A stretch of DNA of 64,000 nucleotides from Candidatus Omnitrophota bacterium (GTDB lineage: Bacteria; Omnitrophota; Gorgyraeia; Gygaellales; Profunditerraquicolaceae), in assembly GCA_028715785.1 (NCBI GenBank), contig JAQURC010000003.1, positions 91,423 through 155,422 on the forward strand, in the 5' to 3' direction. Below the pieces are notes generated by a model. The model searched no databases and had not been told where the DNA came from. It worked only from the letters and a program-made list of their open reading frames with translations. Positions 3,483 to 57,684 of the stretch are shown piece by piece (the stretch's first letter is position 1; every line of letters begins with the position of its first letter). A program made the translations under genes and the position numbers.

Positions 3483-3500
3483 AATAATCTCTTAAAATCC

Positions 3501-3576
3501 GTGTCATTGCGAGCCCGAAGGGCCAAGCAATCTAATAAAAGATTGCTTCGTCGCCTACGGCTCCTCGCAATGACAC
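3501..3576. repeat. Family A palindromic intergenic repeat, copy A1
   Basis: GTGTCATTGCGAG...GAAGCAATC-loop-GATTGCTTCG...CTCGCAATGACAC. The right arm is the exact reverse complement of the left arm of copy A2. Confidence 0.85.
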
Positions 3577-8136: not shown

Positions 8137-9464
8137 AGCACTGCCTCCAGGCTATCGGTAAGACGAACTATCTCTTCTTTGGTCCTTTTCTCGGTAACGG
8201 CAATCAATAAATAATTATCCATTCCTTTATAGAACTTGCCCAGCGGAAAACCGCAGGCAAAGCCTTTTTCAATCATCCGGCGCACTACTTCATCGGCACT
8301 TTTAGGCAGTAACACTGTAAATTCATTAAAAGTCGGAGAGGAACGTTTTACTGCAACGCCTTTAACGCGCGACAATTCCTCTTTGGCAAACTCGGCTTTT
8401 TGATAATTATGGGCGGCTAGCTCCTTCAATCCTTCCCTGCCCAAAAGCGAAACAAACACTGCCGCCCGTAACGCGCAAAGCGCCTCATTCGAACAAATAT
8501 TGGAAGTCGCTTTTTGGCGGCGGATATGCTGCTCGCGGGTCTGCAGGGTCAAGACAAAACCTCTTTTACCGCCGCTGTCAACGGTAGCCCCCACGATCCT
8601 GCCGGGCATCTGGCGCACTAATTCATTTTTTACGGCCATAAATCCCAAATAAGGCCCGCCGAAAGAAAGCGGTATCCCCAAACTCTGGCCTTCGCCTGTG
8701 GCGATATCAAACCCCATCTCACCCGGAGCCTTTAACATGCCCAGAGAAACCGGATACACCGAAGCAATTGCCAAAGCGCCAAATTTATGCGCCTCATTCA
8801 CTATGTCGCTATGATCATCAACAGCGCCGAAGAAATTAGGGTTCTGTAAAATTACCGCGGCGGTCCGATCATCTAAATGTTTAAGCAACTCTCCCCTGCT
8901 GCTCTGGCCGTGCACAACCGGGATTTCCACAAACTCAACGGAAAGATTCAAGGTGTAAGTGTAAAGCATGGTGCGATAGATCAAGTTCACTCCGCTGTCC
9001 AAAATTATTTTATTGCGGCCGGTCTGCCTTATGGCCATCATCATCGCCTCAAAAAGAGCGGTCCCCCCGTCATACAAAGAAGCATTGGAAACATCCAGTC
9101 CGGTCAACTGGCAAATAATACTCTGATATTCATAAATTGCCTGCAGCCACCCCTGGGAACACTCCGGCTGATACGGCGTATAAGCGGTATAGAACTCTGA
9201 ACGCCCGGCAAGCGCGTCCACGCCGGCGGGAATAAAATGATCATAGAATCCCGCGCCGACAAAATTAACCAGGCCCGTGGCATTCTTTAGGGAAAGCTTG
9301 CGCAATGCTTGCGTTACCTCAAACTCTGATTTTGACGCCGGAATTTTAAAAGATTTGGGCGAAAGTGCCGCGGGAATATCTTTAAAAAGTTCATTGATAT
9401 TCTTTACCCCGATCACTTGCAGCACCTCTTGAATATCCTCTTGCGTGTGCGGAATATAACTCAT
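8133..9464 (-). CDS. gcvPA: Glycine dehydrogenase subunit 1
   Basis: P-protein N-terminal half. There is a 4-nt overlap with gcvPB. Confidence 0.9.
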   Translation of the reverse strand: MSYIPHTQEDIQEVLQVIGVKNINELFKDIPAALSPKSFKIPASKSEFEVTQALRKLSLKNATGLVNFVGAGFYDHFIPAGVDALAGRSEFYTAYTPYQPECSQGWLQAIYEYQSIICQLTGLDVSNASLYDGGTALFEAMMMAIRQTGRNKIILDSGVNLIYRTMLYTYTLNLSVEFVEIPVVHGQSSRGELLKHLDDRTAAVILQNPNFFGAVDDHSDIVNEAHKFGALAIASVYPVSLGMLKAPGEMGFDIATGEGQSLGIPLSFGGPYLGFMAVKNELVRQMPGRIVGATVDSGGKRGFVLTLQTREQHIRRQKATSNICSNEALCALRAAVFVSLLGREGLKELAAHNYQKAEFAKEELSRVKGVAVKRSSPTFNEFTVLLPKSADEVVRRMIEKGFACGFPLGKFYKGMDNYLLIAVTEKRTKEEIVRLTDSLEAVL

Positions 9465-9875: not shown

Positions 9876-9956
9876 GTCATTGCGAGGAGCCGTAGGCGAC
9901 GAAGCAATCTTTAAAAGCAAGATTGCTTCGGCACTTCTCGTGCCTCGCAATGACAC
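9876..9956. repeat. Family A palindromic intergenic repeat, copy A2
   Basis: Same termini and inner stem as A1. It lies between the gcvT stop and the gcvH RBS. Confidence 0.85.
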
Positions 9957-31373: not shown

Positions 31374-31429
31374 AGTGTTTTTTAATATAATATTACTTAC
31401 ATTTACTTAGAATAGTTAGCAAGAAAAAA

Positions 31430-31509
31430 GGGGACGGTTCTATTTTTTGTGCTTTGTAGCTGACGTTTAAACGTCAGCTACTCTGTGGATAAAAAACAGA
31501 ACCGTCCCC
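31430..31509. repeat. Family C nested-palindrome element, copy C2
   Basis: GGGGACGGTTCT...GTAGCTGACGTTTAAACGTCAGCTAC...AGAACCGTCCCC. Flanking A- and T-runs give a bidirectional terminator-like structure. Confidence 0.85.
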
Positions 31510-37272: not shown

Positions 37273-37279
37273 TAAAAAC

Positions 37280-37360
37280 AGGGACGGTTCTGTTTTTTTG
37301 TACTTTGTAGCTGACGTTTAAACGTCAGCTACTCTGTGGATAAAAAATAGAACCGTCCCC
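37280..37360. repeat. Family C nested-palindrome element, copy C3
   Basis: Near-identical to C2. It ends 8 nt before the uvrA start codon. Confidence 0.85.
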
Positions 37361-47200: not shown

Positions 47201-47225
47201 CCAGAGTCTCCTTAGATTTCAAATG

Positions 47226-47390
47226 TTAGCGGGTTTGGCGAGTCTTGTTCTCGCATCACCGCTTGCTGTCCCCAGCGTGGACAGCTGCGCTTCAGTAAAA
47301 TTCTCGCTCTGCCGGAACATCTATGGCGGGCAGCCCTGCCCGCTCGAATTTTAAGATGCTGCTCGAATCAAGCCTCGCCGCCCGCTAAGC
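47226..47390 (+). repeat. Family B structured intergenic repeat, copy B1
   Basis: CTTAGCGGG...CCCGCTAAG terminal inverted repeat with nested stems. It lies between the argF stop and the argG RBS. Confidence 0.85.
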
Positions 47391-48308
47391 TTAACCCTTA
47401 AGCAACTTAATCAAAATCGCCTTTTGCACATGCATCCTGTTTTCCGCCTGATCAAAAACAATCGAATTTTTACTGTCCATAACCTCATCGGTTATTTCTT
47501 CGCCTCGATGGGCGGGCAAACAGTGCATAACCAAAACTCCCGGCGCCGCGTTTGCTAAAAGCTTGGCATTGATCTGAAAATCCTTAAAGATAATTTTTCG
47601 CTTGGCGATCTCCTCTTCCTGTCCCATGCTGGCCCAAACATCAGCGTAAATTACATTGGCACCTTTGACTGCGCTAACCGGATCTTCGGTAATTTTTATC
47701 TTGCTGCCCGTCTCTTTGGCGATCTCCTGCGCATACTTAACTACCTGCTCATCCGGAAAGTAACCTTTGGGGCTAGCCACGGTAATATTCATTCCGGTTT
47801 TAGCTGCCGCAAAGAGCAGGGAATTACAAACATTATTGCCGTCGCCGACATAAACCAGGGTGACATTTTTCAAGTCTTTCAATTTCTCTTTAATCGTAAA
47901 AAGATCAGCCAGTCCCTGGCAAGGATGCGAAAAATCCGACAAACCGTTGATCACCGGAACGGTCGCGGCGGTAGCCATATCCAAACAATTCTTATGTTCA
48001 AAGGTCCTTAAAACAATCCCGTCAACATAGCGGGAAATAGTTTTAGCCACATCCCTTACGCTCTCTCTTACGCCGATATTAATCTCAGCAGGCGATAGAT
48101 ACAGGGAATTCCCTCCCAACTGATACATGCCGACCTCGAAAGAGACCCGTGTCCTGTTCGACGGTTTCTGAAAAATCAAGGCCAAAGTTTTACCGGATAA
48201 TACCTTGCTGAATTTCTTTTTATTCTTCTTGAGCAGGGCGGAAAGCTTAAAAATAGAATCGATCTCCCCTAAAGTTAGATCCCTGATTGAAAGCAGGTCC
48301 TTTTTCAT
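47391..48308 (-). CDS. argF: Ornithine carbamoyltransferase
   Basis: STRTR and HCLP motifs. Confidence 0.9.
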   Translation of the reverse strand: MKKDLLSIRDLTLGEIDSIFKLSALLKKNKKKFSKVLSGKTLALIFQKPSNRTRVSFEVGMYQLGGNSLYLSPAEINIGVRESVRDVAKTISRYVDGIVLRTFEHKNCLDMATAATVPVINGLSDFSHPCQGLADLFTIKEKLKDLKNVTLVYVGDGNNVCNSLLFAAAKTGMNITVASPKGYFPDEQVVKYAQEIAKETGSKIKITEDPVSAVKGANVIYADVWASMGQEEEIAKRKIIFKDFQINAKLLANAAPGVLVMHCLPAHRGEEITDEVMDSKNSIVFDQAENRMHVQKAILIKLLKG

Positions 48309-48320
48309 ATTTATCCCCTT

Positions 48321-48403
48321 GTGTCATTGCGAGGAGCCTCGCCGCAGGCGGGCGACGCGGCAATCTTAAAAACAAGATTGCTTCGCTTCGCTCGCAATGA
48401 CGC
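48321..48403. repeat. Family A palindromic intergenic repeat, copy A3
   Basis: Same termini and inner stem as A1, A2 and A4. The argD stop lies in its loop. Confidence 0.85.
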
Positions 48404-49559
48404 CTTCCAGTATTCCTATTGCCTTATCTATCTCTTTTTTTGTTACATTTAACGCCGGCATCAACCTTAAGACTTTATCATGCGTGCAATTGATTAACAA
48501 ACCCTGGAGCATACATTTCTCTACGATTGGCTTCCCTTCAACGGCCAATTCCACTCCCAGCATCAACCCCATGCCCCTTATTTCTTTGATCACCGCAAAG
48601 GAGTTTTTTAGAAGCTTTAATTTTTCCAAAAGATACTCCCCCATATTTTGGCAATTTTTCAAAATTTTTTCTTTCTGCATCGCCTTAAAAACCCCTAAAG
48701 CCGCCCGGCAAATCACCGGGCCGCCGCCAAAAGTAGAGGCGTGCATACCCGGGGCCAAAAGATCGCTCAAATCTCTTCTGGCAATCATGGCGCCAATCGG
48801 CAGGCCTCCGCCTAAAGCCTTAGCCAAAGTCATAATATCGGGAGTTATGCCATAATGCTGATAGCCGAACATCTTGGCTGTCCTGCCGATACCGGTCTGC
48901 ACCTCATCAATGATCAAAAGTAGATTCTTCTCATCGCATAATTTTCTAAGCGCCAAAACAAAATCTTTATCGGCGACATTTACTCCGCCTTCCCCCTGGA
49001 TAAGTTCAAGCATAACCGCAACCGTCTTCTCCGTAAGCGCCTGCTTGACCGCGTTTATATCATTGAACTTAACCTGCTTAAAACCCTCCGGCATCGGCTC
49101 AAAACCAGCCTGATATTTTTTCTGGCCGGTAGCGGCCAAGGCGGCTAAGGTCCTGCCGTGAAAGGCATTTTCAAAAGTGATTATCTCATACCTGCCTTTA
49201 CCGAATTTTCTGGCCAGCTTAATCGCTCCCTCGTTGGCCTCTGCTCCGGAGTTGGCAAAAAAGACCTTCCCCGGAAAACTCAAATAGATCAACTCTTTGG
49301 CTAACTTTGCCTGGAAAGGATGATAATAATTATTCGGCACAAAGATCAGTTTGCTGATCTGATCCCGCACGCCCTGCATTACTTTAGGATGACAATGCCC
49401 CAGGTTACCCACCCCCCAACCCGGAAAAAAATCCAGATAGGCCCTTCCGTTAATATCCCAAAGCCGCGAACCCTTGCCCTTGACAAATACCAGCGGCACC
49501 TTGCTATAGGTGGGCATGATGTTTTCTTTATAAACCTGAAAGATCTCTTCTACTTTCAT
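48366..49559 (-). CDS. argD: Acetylornithine aminotransferase
   Basis: Class III aminotransferase. The last 11 aa (VIASEAKQSCF) are encoded by repeat A3. Confidence 0.9.
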   Translation of the reverse strand: MKVEEIFQVYKENIMPTYSKVPLVFVKGKGSRLWDINGRAYLDFFPGWGVGNLGHCHPKVMQGVRDQISKLIFVPNNYYHPFQAKLAKELIYLSFPGKVFFANSGAEANEGAIKLARKFGKGRYEIITFENAFHGRTLAALAATGQKKYQAGFEPMPEGFKQVKFNDINAVKQALTEKTVAVMLELIQGEGGVNVADKDFVLALRKLCDEKNLLLIIDEVQTGIGRTAKMFGYQHYGITPDIMTLAKALGGGLPIGAMIARRDLSDLLAPGMHASTFGGGPVICRAALGVFKAMQKEKILKNCQNMGEYLLEKLKLLKNSFAVIKEIRGMGLMLGVELAVEGKPIVEKCMLQGLLINCTHDKVLRLMPALNVTKKEIDKAIGILEGVIASEAKQSCF

Positions 49560-50410
49560 TTTATGATTTCCGTGCCGATACCATGGTCGGTAAAAATCTC
49601 GATTAAAAGGCCATGGGGGGTGCGCGCGTCAATAATATGCGTTTTCTTTACTCCGCCGTTTAACGCCTCAACGCAGGCCATGACCTTAGGGATCATCCCC
49701 TGCTGGATAACTTTGTTTTCGATCAATCCGTTTACCTCTTCAACCGTCAGAGTAGAAATAAAGGAATGCGGATCATCGGCATTGCGCATGATCCCCCTGA
49801 CATTGGTCAATAAGACCAGCTTCTCTGCCTGCATATTTGCGGCAATACTGGCAGCTGCTTCATCGGCATTTACATTATAAGTTTTTTTATCCTTGCCGCG
49901 GCCCATGGGCAAAACTACGGCTACCTTATCTTTTTTCAGTTCTCCGTTCAACAAATGCGTATTTATGCCTTTGACCTGCCCCACCAAACCGATATCGACT
50001 TTAGCCTTTTTCTTTTCAACCTGGATCAAATCGTCATCCTTGCCGTTTAAACCGACAGCCTTTGCTCCTAAGGCATCAAGTTCTTTGACGATCAATCCAT
50101 TCAGCACTAATAATTCTTCTTCCACTAATTTTAAGGTTTCTGCGTCGGTAACCCGCATTCCCTCCACAAACTCTGTTTTCTTACCGGATGCGCGCATACG
50201 CTCGCTGATATTCGGGCCGCCTCCGTGCACAAGCACCGGCCGCAACCCCATAAAATTCAAAAAGACGATATCCTCTAAAACACCGCTGCGGATTTTTTCA
50301 TCTCCCAGGATGCTTCCGCCGTATTTAATCACAATTACCTTTTTATGGAACCTCTTTATATAAGGCAATGCTTCAATTAGAACATCTGCTTTTCTGATTG
50401 CGTCTTTCAT
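49556..50410 (-). CDS. argB: Acetylglutamate kinase
   Basis: AAK family. Confidence 0.9.
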   Translation of the reverse strand: MKDAIRKADVLIEALPYIKRFHKKVIVIKYGGSILGDEKIRSGVLEDIVFLNFMGLRPVLVHGGGPNISERMRASGKKTEFVEGMRVTDAETLKLVEEELLVLNGLIVKELDALGAKAVGLNGKDDDLIQVEKKKAKVDIGLVGQVKGINTHLLNGELKKDKVAVVLPMGRGKDKKTYNVNADEAAASIAANMQAEKLVLLTNVRGIMRNADDPHSFISTLTVEEVNGLIENKVIQQGMIPKVMACVEALNGGVKKTHIIDARTPHGLLIEIFTDHGIGTEIIK

Positions 50411-50423
50411 CGGCCCTTTTCCT

Positions 50424-51560
50424 TTAGTTGTAAGCGGCGTTGATCTTTATATATTCCGGAGTAAGATCGGAAGTAAAAACCGTGCACCTGGCTTTGCCCC
50501 GGGATAAGCTCACCCAAACTTTTACGTGTTTTGCCTTTAACGAACCCAGCTTTATTTTCAACTGATGCTCTTTAATATTAAAACCGCTGGCGCCGACTGC
50601 GGCAGCTACCCGGCCAAAATTTGGGTTCCGGCCAAAAACAGCAGTTTTAAAAAGCGTTGAGTTGGCGATATTTAAAGCTACTTTTTTTGCCTCATGCCAA
50701 TCCTTTGCCCGGCAAACTTCAATCTGGATAAATTTAGTAGCTCCCTCGGCATCCAAAATTATCATCTTAGCCAGTTCAAAACAAATTAATTCCAAAGCCT
50801 TGGAAAAAACCTGTAAATCTTTACCGGCAGAAACAGTTTTATTGCCCGCAGCCCCATTGGCTAAAACTAACACCGTATCATTTGTGCTCATACAACCATC
50901 AACAGAAATACAGTTAAAAGTTCTATCCACGGCAGATACCAGTGATTTATCTAAAGCCTTTTTAGCGATCGAAGCATCGGTCATAACAAAACAAAGCATA
51001 GTTGCCATATCCGGGGCAATCATCCCTGCGCCTTTGGCGATCCCGCAAATATGCACCGGCTTGCCGGCAATCCTTATGCTTAAGCTGATTTCTTTAGCAA
51101 AGGTATCCGTGGTCATAATCGCTTTTTTTGCCTTATCGATACCGGAACAAGACAACCCGCTGACTAGCTCATCAATACCCCGCTTGATTTTTCCAACATC
51201 CAGCCTTTTACCGATAATCCCCGTAGAATTAACCAAAATACTGCTTTTTGCGATTTTTAATCTTTCGGCCACATATCCGACGGAAACTTGGGCATCTTTA
51301 ATCCCGGCTTTACCGGTAAAACAATTCGCATTGCCGCTATTAATCAAAACAGCCTGAAATCTCTTGGCGGATTTTAAGTGCGTTTTAGAAACTACCAGCG
51401 GCGCGGCAATAATACTGTTGGTGGTGAATTTCGCGCTGGCTACGGCCGGATACTCGGAATAAAGCAATGCCAAATCCAGCTTGCCGGACTTCTTTAATCC
51501 GCAAGCGATGCCATTTGCCTTAAATCCCGCGGGTAAAATTGCTTTTAAAACCTTCTTCAT
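50424..51560 (-). CDS. argJ: Bifunctional ornithine acetyltransferase / N-acetylglutamate synthase
   Basis: ArgJ with the autocatalytic ATML-like site (TMLCFV). Confidence 0.9.
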   Translation of the reverse strand: MKKVLKAILPAGFKANGIACGLKKSGKLDLALLYSEYPAVASAKFTTNSIIAAPLVVSKTHLKSAKRFQAVLINSGNANCFTGKAGIKDAQVSVGYVAERLKIAKSSILVNSTGIIGKRLDVGKIKRGIDELVSGLSCSGIDKAKKAIMTTDTFAKEISLSIRIAGKPVHICGIAKGAGMIAPDMATMLCFVMTDASIAKKALDKSLVSAVDRTFNCISVDGCMSTNDTVLVLANGAAGNKTVSAGKDLQVFSKALELICFELAKMIILDAEGATKFIQIEVCRAKDWHEAKKVALNIANSTLFKTAVFGRNPNFGRVAAAVGASGFNIKEHQLKIKLGSLKAKHVKVWVSLSRGKARCTVFTSDLTPEYIKINAAYN

Positions 51561-52591
51561 AATAATCCGGCCGTCTCAGGCAGCTTATACATAATATTCA
51601 TATTCTGCACTGCTTGGGCTGAAGCGCCTTTTAATAAATTATCAATCGCGCAGATGACAATAATTGTTTTACCGAAATCCTTGACTCCGATGTCGCAAAA
51701 ATTAGTCTTGACCACATCCTTGATCCGGGGAAAAATACCGTCCGGCTTGATCCGGATAAACGGTTCATTCTTATAGAATTTTTTATATAATTCTACTACA
51801 CTGCCTACTTTAAGTTTTGCCCCCGGGGCCTTCTTAAGATAAATCGTCGCAAGTATCCCTCTTTCGATAGGCAGAAGATGCGGCACGAATACCACGCTAA
51901 TCTTTTTTCCGGCCAGCTTAGAAAGAGTCTGGTTTATTTCCGGTGAATGCTGGTGCACATTAACTTTATAAGCCCGGAAATCTCCCTGTATTTCAGAAAA
52001 TAAATATTCTTTCTCCAGCTTTTTGCCCGCACCGCTCACTCCGGATTTAGCGTCGATAATAATCGAATCCGTATCGACTAAATTTACCGCCAATAGCGGG
52101 GCAAGCCCAAGAATCGCCGAAGTGGGATAACATCCGGGATTGGCCAGAAGCTTTGCGGTTTTGATCTTTGCCCTGTTTAATTCCGGCAGCCCATAAATGG
52201 CCTCTTTTAAATTGGCCTTATCCTGATGGCTTATCTTATAAAATTCTTCATAAATCGTCGGGTTTTTAATCCTATAGTCGGCGCTTAAATCAACAACCCT
52301 CTTGCCTAAACTTAAAAGTTTGGGCGCAAATTTCATGGATATAGTATGCGGCAGGGCCAAAAAAACCAGGTCGCAATCTTTCTTAATTTGGGCCCAATCC
52401 GGTTTTATGCAAACCAGATCCAGCCTCTTCTTGAATTTCGGAAAAACATCGGAAATAACGCAAGCCCCCTGGCCGCTCTTTCCGCTATTGTAAAGGCGGG
52501 TGATCTTAACATTGGGATGGCCAAGCAAAAGTTCAATCAGGACCTCTCCGGTATGGCCGGTGGCTCCGATTATTCCAACATTGATAATCAT
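51557..52591 (-). CDS. argC: N-acetyl-gamma-glutamyl-phosphate reductase
   Basis: GATGHTG motif and an active-site Cys. Confidence 0.9.
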   Translation of the reverse strand: MIINVGIIGATGHTGEVLIELLLGHPNVKITRLYNSGKSGQGACVISDVFPKFKKRLDLVCIKPDWAQIKKDCDLVFLALPHTISMKFAPKLLSLGKRVVDLSADYRIKNPTIYEEFYKISHQDKANLKEAIYGLPELNRAKIKTAKLLANPGCYPTSAILGLAPLLAVNLVDTDSIIIDAKSGVSGAGKKLEKEYLFSEIQGDFRAYKVNVHQHSPEINQTLSKLAGKKISVVFVPHLLPIERGILATIYLKKAPGAKLKVGSVVELYKKFYKNEPFIRIKPDGIFPRIKDVVKTNFCDIGVKDFGKTIIVICAIDNLLKGASAQAVQNMNIMYKLPETAGLL

Positions 52592-52672
52592 TGGACTCTC
52601 CTCATATTTTAATCATCTTAGAATAAAATCAATCTTCCGTCAAGGTTTTTTCTCGACGGAATAGGCTATAAC

Positions 52673-52841
52673 TTATGCGGGTCCTGTCGAGCCTTGTCTC
52701 TCACCGCACCGCTTGCTCGCCCCAGCGTGGCGAGCTGCGCTTCGGCAAAAATTCTCGCTCTGCCGAGACATTTAGTGCGGGCAACCCTGCCCGCTCGAAT
52801 TTTTGAGATGCTGTTCGAGTCCAAGGCTCGCCACCCGCTAA
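52673..52841 (+). repeat. Family B structured intergenic repeat, copy B2
   Basis: Aligns with B1 and B3 along its whole length, with compensatory stem changes. Confidence 0.85.
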
Positions 52842-53092
52842 CAACATGCATAAATGGCACTGACAAGTTTCGCAGCGAATGTCGATTTTATGAATATCAT
52901 CAAGATTTCCGGCTTTTGCTGGAGGAGCATTAGAAATTTTTCGGCAGTTGTGTGCAAGGAGTTACGGCGAGTGCAGGCAATCTAATAATACGTAAGGAAC
53001 ACTGCGCTGCCGGAAGGAGCCGTAAACCGCAGCACACGGCGAAAAATTTCAGCGACGGAAGTAAAAGACGGAAATCGAAACGCCGCGTAAAC

Positions 53093-53126
53093 AAAAAATC
53101 CCGCTTCATCAGCGGGACTTTTTTAC
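53093..53126 (-). terminator. Rho-independent (bidirectional) terminator downstream of rpsI
   Basis: TCCCGCT-TCATC-AGCGGGA stem, with a T6 run on one side and an A6 run on the other. Confidence 0.7.
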
Positions 53127-53153
53127 AAACTTATATTTTAATCTACTTATCGC

Positions 53154-53549
53154 TTACCTCTTTGTCCACTGGAAGCGTTTACGCGCCCCTTTGAGCCCGT
53201 ATTTCTTACGCTCCTTCATCCGCGGATCACGCGTTAAATACCCGTTCTTACGGAATATTGCCTTAAAATTTTCATCCGCATTTAAAAGCGCGCGGGCAAT
53301 ACCCAAACGTAAAGCCCCAGCCTGGCCGGTCAATCCGCCGCCAGCAAGCCTGGCGGCAATATTAAATTTACCCGTGCTTTCCGTAAGCGCCAAAGGCTGT
53401 AAAACAATAATCCGGTCTGTTTCACGCAGGAAATATTTCTCAAAAGGCCGCCCGTTAACCGTAATCAAGCCGGTACCCGGCTCCATACGTACCCTGGCGG
53501 TTGATTCCTTGCGCCTGCCCAATGCTATATATTTAGTTGACTCGCTCAT
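53154..53549 (-). CDS. rpsI: 30S ribosomal protein S9
   Basis: C-terminal KYGLKGARKRFQWTKR. Confidence 0.95.
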   Translation of the reverse strand: MSESTKYIALGRRKESTARVRMEPGTGLITVNGRPFEKYFLRETDRIIVLQPLALTESTGKFNIAARLAGGGLTGQAGALRLGIARALLNADENFKAIFRKNGYLTRDPRMKERKKYGLKGARKRFQWTKR

Positions 53550-53986
53550 TATTTCCTGGCCTCCAAAACAACAGGCTTTATACCGGTTAAATCATGCTTA
53601 TCATCGGCAAAAACCCTTAATTTTTTAATTAAATCCCTTCCTAGCGGGCCTGAAGGCAGCATCCTCTGAACGGCTAACTGCATAACGGTAGCCGGCTTTT
53701 TAGCCAAAAGCACCTCCAGCTTTACTTCACGTAAGCCTCCCGGATACCCGGAATACCGGCGATAGACCTTCTGTTTAAGCTTTCGCCCGGTGACCTTAAT
53801 CTGGCTGGCATTGATCACAATTACCCCGTCACCGGTATCCAGATGCGGAGTAAAAATCGGCTTATGCTTGCCTCTTAAGATCGTGGCAATCCTGGCTGCC
53901 AGCCTTCCCAAAGTCTGGCCTTTGGCATCAGCAATATACCACTTCATTTTAATGTCTTCCGGTTTGGCTGTATATGTCTTTTTCAT
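53549..53986 (-). CDS. rplM: 50S ribosomal protein L13
   Basis: L13 family. Confidence 0.95.
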   Translation of the reverse strand: MKKTYTAKPEDIKMKWYIADAKGQTLGRLAARIATILRGKHKPIFTPHLDTGDGVIVINASQIKVTGRKLKQKVYRRYSGYPGGLREVKLEVLLAKKPATVMQLAVQRMLPSGPLGRDLIKKLRVFADDKHDLTGIKPVVLEARK

Positions 53987-53995
53987 AGAAAAATA

Positions 53996-54023
53996 AGTAT
54001 AACAGAATAATTTATAAAGTCAA
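53996..54023 (-). promoter_or_regulatory. Possible promoter TTGACT-16-TATACT directly upstream of rplM
   Basis: Read on the minus strand. There are only 9 nt between the -10 element and the ATG, so the mRNA would be near-leaderless. Confidence 0.3.
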
Positions 54024-54032
54024 ATAGATTTT

Positions 54033-54788
54033 TTAATACTTTACCTTGACTAAGCATAATCCTTTTGCCGGCAAAGTCGGCCCGGCAAGCGCACGGTCGC
54101 CTGATTTAAGGATCCTGCGCATACTCCCTTTTGGAAACCTTCCCCTGCCAATCTCTAATAAGGTCCCGGCAATATTTCTGACCATATTATACAAAAAACT
54201 GTCTGCTTCAATGTTAATATGCAAAAAATCTTTATCCTTAACAATCCTGATGCGTTTAACGGTACGCACAGGATTTCTCTGCCTGTCTTCGGCCGCCTGA
54301 AAAGCTTTGAAATTATGCCGGCCAAGAAGAAATTTGGCCTCACTGCGCATTAATCTTGCATCCAGAGGATGATAAAAGAAATATACCCTGCCTGCCGACA
54401 GAGGCGAAGAATATTTCCGATTCAGGATCGTATAACGATAGATCTTGGATTTGGCGCAGAACCGGCTGTTAAAATCCAAACCCACCTTTTGAATCCGGCT
54501 TACCTTTATATCTTCAGGCAGAAGGCAATTTATCGCCCAGCGCAATCTTGCCAGGGGTATTTTTGAGGAACTTTTAAAATTAGCAACCTGGGAAAGAGCG
54601 TGCACCCCTGAATCCGTGCGCCCGGCAACGATGAGCTTAATCTCTTCCTGAAGGATTTTTTTAAGAACCTGCTCTAAAACATGCTGGATGGTTTTGTTTG
54701 CCCGGTAAGTTACCTTTTTGCCGTTCTGCACCTGCCAGCCGTAATAATGCGTGCCGTCATACTCTATTTGGAGCTTGAAATTAGGCAT
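54033..54788 (-). CDS. truA: tRNA pseudouridine(38-40) synthase
   Basis: TruA catalytic Asp motif (GRTDSGVHA). Confidence 0.9.
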   Translation of the reverse strand: MPNFKLQIEYDGTHYYGWQVQNGKKVTYRANKTIQHVLEQVLKKILQEEIKLIVAGRTDSGVHALSQVANFKSSSKIPLARLRWAINCLLPEDIKVSRIQKVGLDFNSRFCAKSKIYRYTILNRKYSSPLSAGRVYFFYHPLDARLMRSEAKFLLGRHNFKAFQAAEDRQRNPVRTVKRIRIVKDKDFLHINIEADSFLYNMVRNIAGTLLEIGRGRFPKGSMRRILKSGDRALAGPTLPAKGLCLVKVKY

Positions 54789-55789
54789 TCAGCGATTTGC
54801 ACGGCATTTGTGGCAGCGCCTTTACGTAAATTATCCGCCACTACCCACAACCATAATCCCTTTTTATTAAAGGTATCCTGGCGGATGCGGCCGACAAAAG
54901 TCTCATCCTTGCCCTCGACATCCTTAGGCATAGGATATAAATTATTCTTAGGATCATCCATAACCACAACGCCCGCAGCCTTGGCTAAGATTTTCCTGGC
55001 TCCTTCGGCAGTTAAGGGCTTGGCAGTTTCAATATAAACCGATTCAGAATGCCCGGTCCTTACCGGAACACGCACGGTAGTTGCCGAAATTTTAATCTTT
55101 GGCGCGTGCATAATTTTGTGTGTTTCCTTGACCAGCTTCCACTCTTCATTGGTATAATCGCCCTCAACAAAACTGCCGATGTGCGGAAAACAATTATAAG
55201 CTAACTGCTGGGGCATAGCTTTATTTAGAACGCAAACTTTAACATTTTCAAATCCACCCTGGGCAATTAAACTCGATTCTTCTTTTAATTGCTCAACCGC
55301 CCCTTTTCCCGCCCCGCTGGAAGCCTGCAGAGTGGTAACGATAATTTTCTTAATCCCTACCTTCTTATGAATAGGATTCAAAGCTACCACCATCTGGATA
55401 GTCGAACAATTAGGATTAGCGATAATCCCTTTGTGTTTTTTAACATCATTAGGATTAACTTCCGGAACAACCAGGGGAACTTTTGGATCCATACGAAAAT
55501 CCGCGCCGTTATCAATAACCACAGCGCCTCTTTTTACCGCCTCAGGCGCGTAACTGACCGCGGCCCCCTTCTCGCCTTCGGTTCCGGCAAACAATGCGAT
55601 ATCGATTCCGTTGAAACCATCCGGAGTAATCGGCTCAACCGCATAAACCTGCCCATCGACATTGATATCGCGGGCAGAACGGGCAAAAACTTTTAAGGTG
55701 TTCACGGGAAAATTCCGCTGCTTTAAAACCCGCAGCATCTCAATCCCAACGACTCCTGCCCCGATTACCGCCACATTATATTTTTTCAT
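54764..55789 (-). CDS. asd: Aspartate-semialdehyde dehydrogenase
   Basis: N-terminal GAGVVG and an active-site Cys. Confidence 0.9.
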   Translation of the reverse strand: MKKYNVAVIGAGVVGIEMLRVLKQRNFPVNTLKVFARSARDINVDGQVYAVEPITPDGFNGIDIALFAGTEGEKGAAVSYAPEAVKRGAVVIDNGADFRMDPKVPLVVPEVNPNDVKKHKGIIANPNCSTIQMVVALNPIHKKVGIKKIIVTTLQASSGAGKGAVEQLKEESSLIAQGGFENVKVCVLNKAMPQQLAYNCFPHIGSFVEGDYTNEEWKLVKETHKIMHAPKIKISATTVRVPVRTGHSESVYIETAKPLTAEGARKILAKAAGVVVMDDPKNNLYPMPKDVEGKDETFVGRIRQDTFNKKGLWLWVVADNLRKGAATNAVQIAECLISSSK

Positions 55790-55812
55790 CTTTTATAACC
55801 TTTCTTCATTAC

Positions 55813-55968
55813 TTAGCGGGTCCTGCCGAGACTTGTTCTCGCCGCACCGCTTGCTCGCCCCAGCGTGGCTCGCTGCGCTTCGGTAAAATTCTCGCTCTCC
55901 GCCTTCGGCGGAACCGTGCCCGCTCGAATTTTAAGATGCCGCTCGAATCAAGTCTCGTCACCCGCTAG
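55813..55968 (+). repeat. Family B structured intergenic repeat, copy B3
   Basis: It lies between the leuB stop and the asd RBS. Confidence 0.85.
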
Positions 55969-55971
55969 AAA

Positions 55972-57030
55972 TTATAGATTCTTAACTACAAGATCGCCTA
56001 TCTCCGTTGTCGAATAACCCATTTTACCGGCAGCAAGTGATTTCAGTTTCTTGCTTACTAGTTCAATAACCGCATCCTCGATTGCCTTCCCAGCTTCAGT
56101 TTCTCCTAAGCTCTCGAGCATCATCCCTACTGCACAAATTGCTGCTAACGGGTTAATCACATTCTTACCGGTATATTTTGGCGCGCTTCCGCCGATAGGT
56201 TCAAACATCGAAACTCCCTGAGGATTAATATTTCCTCCGGCGGCTATTCCCATACCGCCCTGGATCATCGCCCCTAAATCCGTAATAATATCGCCGAACA
56301 TATTGTCCGTAACGATGACATCAAACCACTCGGGATTCTTTACGAACCACATCGTCGTGGCGTCAACATGGGCGTAATCCGTGGCCACATCCGGGTATTC
56401 TTTGGCTACTTCATTAAATGCGCGCTGCCAAAGGTCCCAGGCATAGGTCAAAACATTGGTTTTACCGCAAAGGGTCAGCTTTTTCCTTTTATTACGCTTG
56501 CGCGTGTACTCGAAAGCATAACGGATACAGCGCTCCACCCCTTTACGGGTATTATAGGAAATCTGGGTAGCCACTTCATTGGCCGTCCCTTTGTCTTTAA
56601 ACTCTCCCATACCTTTATATAGGCCTTCGGAGTTCTCGCGCACAACCACAAAATCAATATCTTCCGGCTTCTTGTCTTTAAGCGGGCAAAAATTGGAATT
56701 ATAAAGCTTGACCGGGCGCAGGTTAATATATTGATCCAGGGCAAATCTTAATTTAAGCAGCACGCCTGTTTCAATAATCCCGGGCTTTACATCCGGGTCA
56801 CCCACCGCGCCGAGGTAAATCGCGTTATATTTTTTTAATTCGGCAATATCGTTATCATCAACCAGTTTTCCGGTTTTTAAATATCTCCGGCCGCTGAAAT
56901 CAAAAGATTTTGTTTCATATTTAAAATTAAACTTCCGGGCAGCTGCCTGCAAAACTTTCAAACCCTCGTTAACTACCTCCGGGCCGGTCCCGTCGCCGGG
57001 GATTACCGCGATCCTATACATTTTGAGCAC
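55972..57030 (-). CDS. leuB: 3-isopropylmalate dehydrogenase
   Basis: IDH/IMDH family. Confidence 0.9.
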
Positions 57031-57596: not shown

Positions 57597-57609
57597 AGTA
57601 AATAAATTT

Positions 57610-57684
57610 GTGTCATTGCGAGCCCGCAGGGCGAAGCAATCCCGCTTTTAAGATTGCTTCGTCGCTTTGCTCCTCGCAATGACA
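57610..57684. repeat. Family A palindromic intergenic repeat, copy A4
   Basis: The leuC stop lies in its loop. Confidence 0.85.

Follow-up and report, generated by a model that had tools for sequence, protein, structure and literature searches.

A small non-coding repeat family with a conserved fold in Candidatus Omnitrophota

Three copies of a structured repeat among leu, asd and arg genes

The DNA analysed here, a stretch of 64,000 nucleotides from a Candidatus Omnitrophota contig (JAQURC010000003.1, positions 91,423 to 155,422; hereafter the window), carries three copies of a repeat of about 165 nt that we call family B. All genes of the region lie on the - strand, in the order leuD, leuB, asd, truA, rplM, rpsI, argC, two open reading frames (ORFs), argD, argF and argG; copy B3 lies between leuB and asd, copy B2, together with a second repeat, D, between rpsI and argC, and copy B1 between argF and argG. 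The two ORFs between argC and argD are homologues of ArgJ and an amino-acid kinase in L041, a locus from a relative. B1 (47226-47388, - strand) extends from TTAGCGGG (47226-47233) to CCCGCTAA (47381-47388), and B3 (55813-55968, - strand) from TTAGCGGG (55813-55820) to CCCGCTAG (55961-55968). B1 begins 2 nt past the argF stop codon (47391-47393), with 25 nt from its end to the argG start (47200), and B3 begins 3 nt past the leuB stop codon (55972-55974), with 23 nt from its end to the asd start (55789). B2 (52673-52841, - strand), running from TTATGCGGG (52673-52681) to CCCGCTAA (52834-52841), is found between a terminator-like hairpin of rpsI (53099-53117, - strand) and a promoter-like site of argC, TTGACG-17-TAAGAT (52615-52643, - strand). 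The hairpin, which is kept in relatives, bounds the D+B insertion on its upstream side; the promoter-like site, downstream of B2, is kept in relatives with or without the insertion. An initial annotation of this DNA had placed all the copies between cistrons, which is true of B1 and B3 but not of B2, beyond the rpsI hairpin.

The three copies are all oriented alike on the + strand and can be aligned over their full length, with a mean column identity of 85%. A 22-nt core pattern matches the window at exactly these three places (none is expected in shuffles), and neither nhmmer nor a covariance model finds a fourth copy in the 64 kb; three same-oriented copies had been reported at these positions, and this is borne out. 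The covariance model matches B1 at 47223-47392 with 161.5 bits on the - strand (16.9 on the +), B2 at 52671-52845 with 174.4 bits (8.4) and B3 at 55810-55972 with 166.4 bits (17.6). The terminal inverted repeats are shorter than the 9-10 bp first assigned to them, being perfect over only 8 bp in B1 (TTAGCGGG/CCCGCTAA) and B3 (TAGCGGGT/ACCCGCTA) and broken by one base in B2 (TTATGCGGG...CCCGCTAA). Across the family, copies are 155-180 nt long, differ by indels of 1-3 nt and have no ORF in common, and the 8-bp core of the terminal inverted repeat extends imperfectly to about 38 nt.

Searching a species-representative genome collection with the core pattern gave 40 loci, 39 of them in about 17 metagenome-assembled genomes (MAGs) labelled Candidatus Omnitrophota or, loosely, 'Planctomycetales' or 'bacterium'; the remaining locus, in Extensimonas, is a chance match to which nhmmer gives no counterpart. 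The Asd protein of the window has no exact counterpart among recorded proteins and is 97% identical to Omnitrophota proteins. A terminus-pattern scan of metagenome contigs added 26 full-length copies, and a search of viral contigs returned no family B copy. The density is three copies in the 64-kb window and up to five core-pattern matches per MAG. The family thus numbers dozens of copies, always intergenic, in about 17 Omnitrophota genomes, and its copies are not pieces of a larger insertion sequence (IS) or prophage, a possibility that the initial annotation had raised. No Rfam 15 model reaches its gathering score over the window or gives a relevant match at E values up to 10 between 47000 and 56200, and ARAGORN finds no tRNA or tmRNA. 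Literature searches by topic and by sequence motif returned no earlier description of this repeat family and nothing relevant on repeats or non-coding elements of Omnitrophota. We conclude that family B is a previously undescribed family of small non-coding repeats, resembling miniature inverted-repeat transposable elements (MITEs), in Candidatus Omnitrophota.

Fold and covariation

The - strands of the window copies are predicted to fold with energies of -72 to -84 kcal/mol (z = -4.1 to -5.1). In a first test, a hand-drawn structure was applied to a structure-blind MAFFT alignment of 42 copies retrieved via the core pattern; 92.6% of cells were paired, and 29 of 40 pairs had changes on both sides. 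A mutual-information scan of 69 copies corrected the junction, and the refined structure of 52 pairs was tested on 67 copies. In these, 87.3% of cells are paired, compared with 73.5% after shuffling and 33-45% for partners slid along the alignment; changes on both sides are seen in 47 of the 52 pairs (shuffles 32.5, slid partners 27-32), compensated cells number 427 (107.5 and 83-140, respectively), and the covariation score is 0.364 (0.137 for shuffles and at most 0.117 for slid partners). Not one of 500 shuffles reaches any of the observed measures. The proposal that the repeats represent a structure under selection, as opposed to decaying duplicates, is thus supported.

The fold is a rod made of the paired termini (P1), P2, P3 and a 4-bp P4, which closes a tight three-way junction. 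P3 contains a tandem G.A in nearly all copies. One arm, the A/U-rich P5, opens into a large internal loop in which GAGCGGGCAnGGU faces GAGCGA, with a variable hairpin, P6, beyond it; the other, P7-P8, ends in a 7-nt loop that is nearly invariant, ACGCUGG on the - strand. In B1 the P8 hairpin lies at 47265-47285 (- strand; GCTGTCC-CCAGCGT-GGACAGC on the +), and its stem covaries family-wide (pairs 141-161 to 146-156). The compensatory examples first quoted from the window, CGAGACTTG/CAAGTCTCG in B3 against CGAGCCTTG/CAAGGCTCG in B2 and CTGTCC/GGACAG in B1 against CTCGCC/GGCGAG in B2, are correct. That changes are always compensatory was too broad a statement, since B1 is mismatched at the supposedly compensated position of the CGAGNCTTG stem. 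In B3, the arms CTCGCC/GGCTCG of the hairpin are not Watson-Crick complements and give a tandem G.A on the other strand.

P6 occurs in two unrelated forms. The replacement of one hairpin by another in B3, already noticed in the initial annotation, is real: B3 has CCGCC-TTC-GGCGG at 55899-55911 (CCGCC-GAA-GGCGG on the folding - strand; 'module 2'), where B1 and B2 have TGCC and GGCA separated by about 20 nt. The B3 form recurs in L005, L025, L026, L031 and L039. Between B3 and its orthologue in L041 (about 9880-9910), which has the other form, the P6 module is cleanly swapped while the rest is about 96% identical, and this difference points to exchange between copies of different subfamilies, probably by gene conversion.

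Three further structural features were considered and rejected. A conserved U.G wobble in P4 disappears in the corrected structure, where, according to mutual information, the bases concerned form U-A and C-G pairs with the P5 arm on its 3' side. A pseudoknot joining the ACGCUGG loop to an AGCG motif has no supporting covariation and poor geometry, and the tandem G.A of P3 lacks the adjacent 3-nt bulge of a K-turn.

The strand of the fold

Several asymmetries indicate that the fold belongs to the minus strand of the window, which for all three window copies is also the mRNA-sense strand. Among non-canonical cells in helices, the - strand has 364 purine-purine against 33 pyrimidine-pyrimidine, and recurrent mismatch positions divide in the same way, 19 to 4; on the folding strand these recurrent mismatches are G.A, A.G or G.G. 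Unpaired parts are purine-rich on one strand only. Calculated with RNA parameters, the minus form has the lower folding energy of the two strands in 67 of 69 copies (mean difference 9.5 kcal/mol), and with DNA parameters it does so in all 69. An apparent excess of G.U over A.C cells (66 to 14 on 42 copies), taken at one stage as the mark of a transcribed strand, vanished with the corrected structure, which gives 62 to 63 on 67 copies. With the two counts equal, the classic signature of a transcribed strand is absent and RNA is indistinguishable from single-stranded DNA; the data equally allow either.

Four or five RAGCG motifs are found in the unpaired parts, and the tandem G.A can alternatively be understood as a (G/U)CGAG pentamer present six or seven times in a single orientation. 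The whole set looks like a series of oriented recognition sites. Read on the + strand, those copies whose variable hairpin is of the common form have a terminator-like GCGGGCA-ACCC-TGCCCGC followed by a run of T (window 52777-52803), and an element lying antisense to the window orientation could stop transcription by means of it.

Conservation in place

Orthologous copies are far more similar than the synonymous sites of the genes around them. B1 is 97% identical to its counterpart in L041, compared with about 78% at third codon positions of the flanking genes; B3, outside the swapped module, is 96% identical to that in L041 (third positions 80-84%); and B2 and D are each 96% identical to those in L046 (71-74%). 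Paralogues within the genome are only 79-81% identical, so that homogenisation between copies is not the source of this conservation. Deeper orthologous sets, in both orientations, show the same tendency. Each copy evolves several times more slowly than synonymous sites, as expected of an element constrained in place.

The constraint is unevenly distributed. Invariant columns in the initial alignment, of 42 copies retrieved via the core pattern, are confined to the interior. Among 46 copies retrieved via an interior pattern, both termini are present with at most one mismatch in 19, and the terminal core is degenerate in more than half. Over 69 copies, conservation is at least 97% in the unpaired motifs of the interior and 75-90% at the termini, a comparison that if anything favours the termini, 26 of the 69 having been retrieved by terminus pattern. 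An insertion that was purely selfish and in decay would not be expected to show this pattern.

Insertion polymorphism and orientation

Relatives were compared on contigs whose Asd is 94-97% identical to that of the window and on which gene order is kept. The leuB/asd junction is filled as in the window in L041, empty in L043, L044, L045 and L046 (a spacer of 10-16 nt), and occupied in L042 and L047 by different elements of about 95 nt with the same termini, TTAGCGGG.../...CCCGCTAA, that of L042 being in the opposite orientation. The argF/argG junction is as in the window in L041 and empty in L046 (a gap of 0 nt), and holds another palindromic repeat in L042, L043 and L047. At the rpsI/argC junction, L046 has D+B as in the window, L042, L043, L045 and L047 are empty, and the B copy of L041 is reversed and sits elsewhere in the junction. 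Every one of the three sites is therefore empty in at least one relative, and the same junctions have been struck independently by different members, in both orientations. Landing sites are very short AT-rich spacers beside stop and start codons. Nearly every copy has TA on both sides, which could equally belong to the repeat itself.

A constant orientation relative to transcription, claimed in the initial annotation, holds for the three window copies but not for the family, in which copies between co-directional ORFs are sense in 18 cases and antisense in 11. Because orientations are mixed in this way, the constraint is not tied to the direction of transcription. Nor, apparently, is it tied to that of replication: copies in opposite orientation lie 1-6 kb apart on five contigs (L030, L036, L037, L041 and L060). 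GC skew follows the coding strand only and is unusable as a proxy for replication direction.

A set of elements with common termini

Family B is one of several size classes that share only their termini, with the consensus TTAGCGGGK...MCCCGCTAA and almost always flanked by TA. They measure about 42 nt (L092 3113-3154), 70 nt (L036 2224-2293), 95 nt, 165 nt (family B) and 250 nt (D, L036 3905-4150), and D+B composites belong to the group as well. The three smallest classes are mini-elements with little between the TTAGCGGG and CCCGCTAA termini except a hairpin or two; those of about 95 nt include L042 (about 8877-8963) and the one in the leuB/asd spacer of L047. In the metagenome sample retrieved by terminus pattern, the 60-95-nt class is commoner than family B. 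These size classes look like a non-autonomous set with one mobilisation signal.

The D repeat of the window (about 200-250 nt, a long hairpin) and a 55-nt spacer together occupy 52846-53095 on the - strand, directly 5' of B2 in the sense of the genes. Seven loci besides the window, at different genomic sites, likewise have D directly 5' of a B copy with the relative orientation unchanged. Because the same arrangement recurs at several unrelated sites, D+B behaves as a composite unit. A lone copy of D, with its own TTAGCGGGG terminus, is that at L036 3905-4150. The hairpin of D is built around GAAATTTTTCGCCG...CTGCCGAAAAATTTC, and is found also at L046 11062-11260, L033 7552-7716 and L002 5925-6094. 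The 55-nt stretch that parts D from B2 (window 52846-52899) contains TTTCGCAGCGAATG and adjoins B copies in L001, L004, L005 and L038; in L046 a different spacer, of 17 nt, takes its place. The 55-nt spacer may be another small module.

Pairing inverted termini spaced at 0.45-6 kb in 167 loci brought out no autonomous IS, a search limited by the frequent loss of IS copies from MAG assemblies. The L092 pair flanks cysS and represents two separate small elements, that of L091 lies on either side of uvrC and an aldo-keto reductase gene, and a pair of 852-nt 'elements' in L070 is an assembly artefact, the whole 4618-nt contig being a near-perfect self-palindrome. The ORFs that separate D from B copies are mutually unrelated, and none has a transposase domain. 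No ORF resembling IS200 TnpA or RAYT was detected by phmmer in the loci, a weak test given the approximate query sequence.

Discussion

On balance we think it probable, with a good deal of reserve, that family B is a new MITE-like family that behaves like the Correia, ERIC/REP or bcr1 repeats, and whose folded interior is recognised by something and is therefore kept. Family B would then be a non-autonomous, non-coding mobile repeat native to Candidatus Omnitrophota, one size class of the terminus-sharing group, with a transposase acting in trans presumably recognising the termini and moving the copies. Since no transposase, no longer duplication and no clean junction was found, we can only infer how movement takes place. 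B1 and B3 are likely to be transcribed within the mRNAs of the arg and leu-asd operons, in the orientation that folds well, and would add a compact intercistronic structure to these messages; in that orientation they have no terminator-like hairpin. The folded module itself is probably recognised by some factor and so not inert, as its constraint in place would indicate; the RAGCG and (G/U)CGAG motifs of its unpaired parts, being oriented, point likewise.

A number of observations weigh against this interpretation. In the copies examined, no direct repeat exceeds the flanking TA; filled sites differ from empty ones in extra bases besides the insertion, so that no clean junction can be reconstructed; and about 1.1 Mb of fetched loci contain neither a transposase nor an autonomous partner. 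The equal numbers of G.U and A.C cells lack the classic mark of a transcribed strand, and the mixture of orientations means that a role in mRNA is not the sole constraint. The termini are less conserved than the interior, the reverse of what is expected if transposase alone drives conservation, and the slow evolution of individual copies is unexpected for junk.

What, then, keeps the interior of such a repeat so constant? One answer is that it is a functional structured RNA module, spread as a mobile repeat or recruited from one, whose junction and invariant loops would have an activity or serve to bind a protein, with each copy kept by the host. The unpaired RAGCG motifs might on this account serve as protein-binding sites, by analogy with protein-sequestering small RNAs (sRNAs). 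Every helix covaries and the unpaired nucleotides are conserved, the fold is retained at divergence down to about 60% identity, the variable arm tolerates exchange for another hairpin, the purine-rich unpaired parts are on one strand only, and orthologous copies are under purifying selection and show no concerted evolution, all of which favours such a module. However, there is no conserved promoter in or beside the element and its flanks are unrelated; for 11 of 29 copies between co-directional genes the transcript would be the strand that folds poorly; G.U and A.C cells occur in equal numbers; not even a threshold of E = 10 brings out an Rfam ribozyme or sRNA; and presence is polymorphic among close relatives at housekeeping junctions. 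We therefore regard an RNA of this kind as unlikely, if worth keeping in view. The same strand asymmetry would suit an element of REPIN or IS200/IS605 type, moved as folded single-stranded DNA by a HUH (Y1/RAYT-type) transposase, with the fold and its mismatches as the recognition structure. With DNA parameters the strand-specific fold is indeed favoured in 69 of 69 copies, mismatches and bulges are conserved, whole elements down to 42 nt are long imperfect hairpins, and any target duplication is no longer than TA. Yet true terminal inverted repeats are present and a GTAG-type REP signature is absent; opposite orientations within 1-6 kb on five contigs argue against a strict lagging-strand bias; and the weak phmmer test revealed no IS200-like protein among the ORFs of the loci. 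This mode of transfer seems to us rather improbable.

The covariation could also be asked to carry less. Any helix is an inverted repeat, and in quasi-palindromes template switching between the arms can mimic compensatory change without selection on the fold, so that arm-to-arm correction, well established for such sequences, might by itself give the both-side changes to decaying segmental duplications or chance palindromes. Template switching leaves the conserved loops, persistent mismatches and slow rate unexplained. Unpaired loops are the most conserved parts of the element, specific mismatches (the tandem G.A of P3 and purine-purine at 19 positions) persist uncorrected, copies are dispersed over about 17 genomes, and orthologous copies evolve far more slowly than synonymous sites. 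Since loops and mismatches are conserved, decay is contradicted, and we give it hardly any credence. A bolder alternative, for which the odds are poor, is that the interior of about 120 nt is a new functional nucleic-acid module on a mobile shell, for example a protein-binding or guide-like RNA or a folded-DNA site for an Omnitrophota enzyme, each copy being kept by the host; its parts would be the three-way junction, the invariant GAGCGGGCAnGGU/GAGCGA loop, the invariant ACGCUGG loop and the oriented RAGCG and (G/U)CGAG motifs.

A MITE-like family of this kind has several counterparts in other bacteria. The Correia elements (NEMIS) of Neisseria are non-coding repeats of about 100-160 nt with terminal inverted repeats and TA ends, which lie between genes and within operons, are co-transcribed and form a long hairpin. 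Family B is similar in size, non-coding, and likewise has terminal inverted repeats, TA at its ends, and intergenic and intra-operon positions. It differs in having no sequence relation to them, a host of another phylum, and a branched three-way fold with invariant loops in place of a simple hairpin; neither an IHF site and RNase III processing nor a TA duplication is an established trait of family B. The bcr1 repeats of the Bacillus cereus group are MITE-like elements of about 150 nt in which compensatory changes support a conserved transcript fold, and family B resembles them in length, MITE-like character and compensatory changes. Its sequence, termini and host are unrelated to theirs, and it has no duplication comparable with the TTTAT target duplication of bcr1.

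With the ERIC/IRU and REP/BIME/REPIN repeats of proteobacteria, family B shares the character of clade-specific imperfect palindromes that lie just past stop codons in both orientations, are transcribed with neighbouring genes and are conserved as individual copies; REPINs are moreover recognised as folded single strands. In contrast to these, family B is larger and branched and shares only its termini with the other size classes. The 20-40-nt palindromic unit with a GTAG-type head that characterises REP sequences is absent from its copies, and no RAYT gene was found in the loci. The MITEs of IS630/Tc1-mariner type (Stowaway-like) are likewise TA-flanked, with terminal inverted repeats, varied interiors between common termini and AT-rich targets. 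In family B, however, conservation is higher in the interior than at the termini, and the loci yielded neither a transposase of IS630 type nor an autonomous copy bounded by these termini. The PATE elements derived from IS200/IS605 lack terminal inverted repeats and have a strict strand orientation with respect to replication, whereas family B has inverted termini and opposite orientations within 1-6 kb. An integron attC site, which has conserved R and L boxes and stands 3' of promoterless cassettes arrayed next to an integrase, was considered and rejected, the flanks being housekeeping operons in fixed synteny, in both orientations, and the termini unlike RYYYAAC/GTTRRRY. Family B has several of the attributes by which bacterial MITEs are known: it is small (well below the limit of about 500 bp) and non-coding, with terminal inverted repeats, dispersed copies and presence/absence polymorphism. 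Its strong structural conservation, its modular relationship with terminus-sharing families and the purifying selection on individual copies are unusual.

The combination is a rare one, of a repeat that is clearly mobile and yet has each copy nearly unchanged, its fold kept through very many compensatory changes. The Omnitrophota are uncultivated bacteria, and family B with its terminus-sharing relatives fills many intergenic spacers inside their essential operons. Such repeats probably break assemblies at contig ends and would confuse annotation, and their presence or absence is usable as a strain-level marker. If a factor encoded by the host or the element does recognise the fold, the alignment of some 70 or more sequences is ready for defining the interaction.

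Neighbouring repeats

Other repeats share these spacers. A palindromic repeat, GGGGACGGTTCTATTTTT...AAAATAGAACCGTCCCC, occurs in the window at 31424-31509, 37275-37360 and 24-67, and it is this repeat that occupies the argF/argG junction of B1 in L042, L043 and L047; in L042 and L043 it is preceded by an end, TTAACGGGTCCTGTCTTG, that resembles a family B terminus. A repeat of about 45 nt, CCCCGCGCT.AT..G.ATT.GCGCGGGTG, is found inside a B copy in L014 (6886-7103), and also between the promoter-like site and the start codon of argC in L041 and L042. A third short repeat, GTGTCATTGCGAGCCCG.AGGGC.AAGCAATC, is present in the window at 3495-3576, 9919-9956 and 57604-57641. One copy lies in the leuC/leuD spacer, so that several unrelated repeat families occupy intercistronic junctions in this genome.

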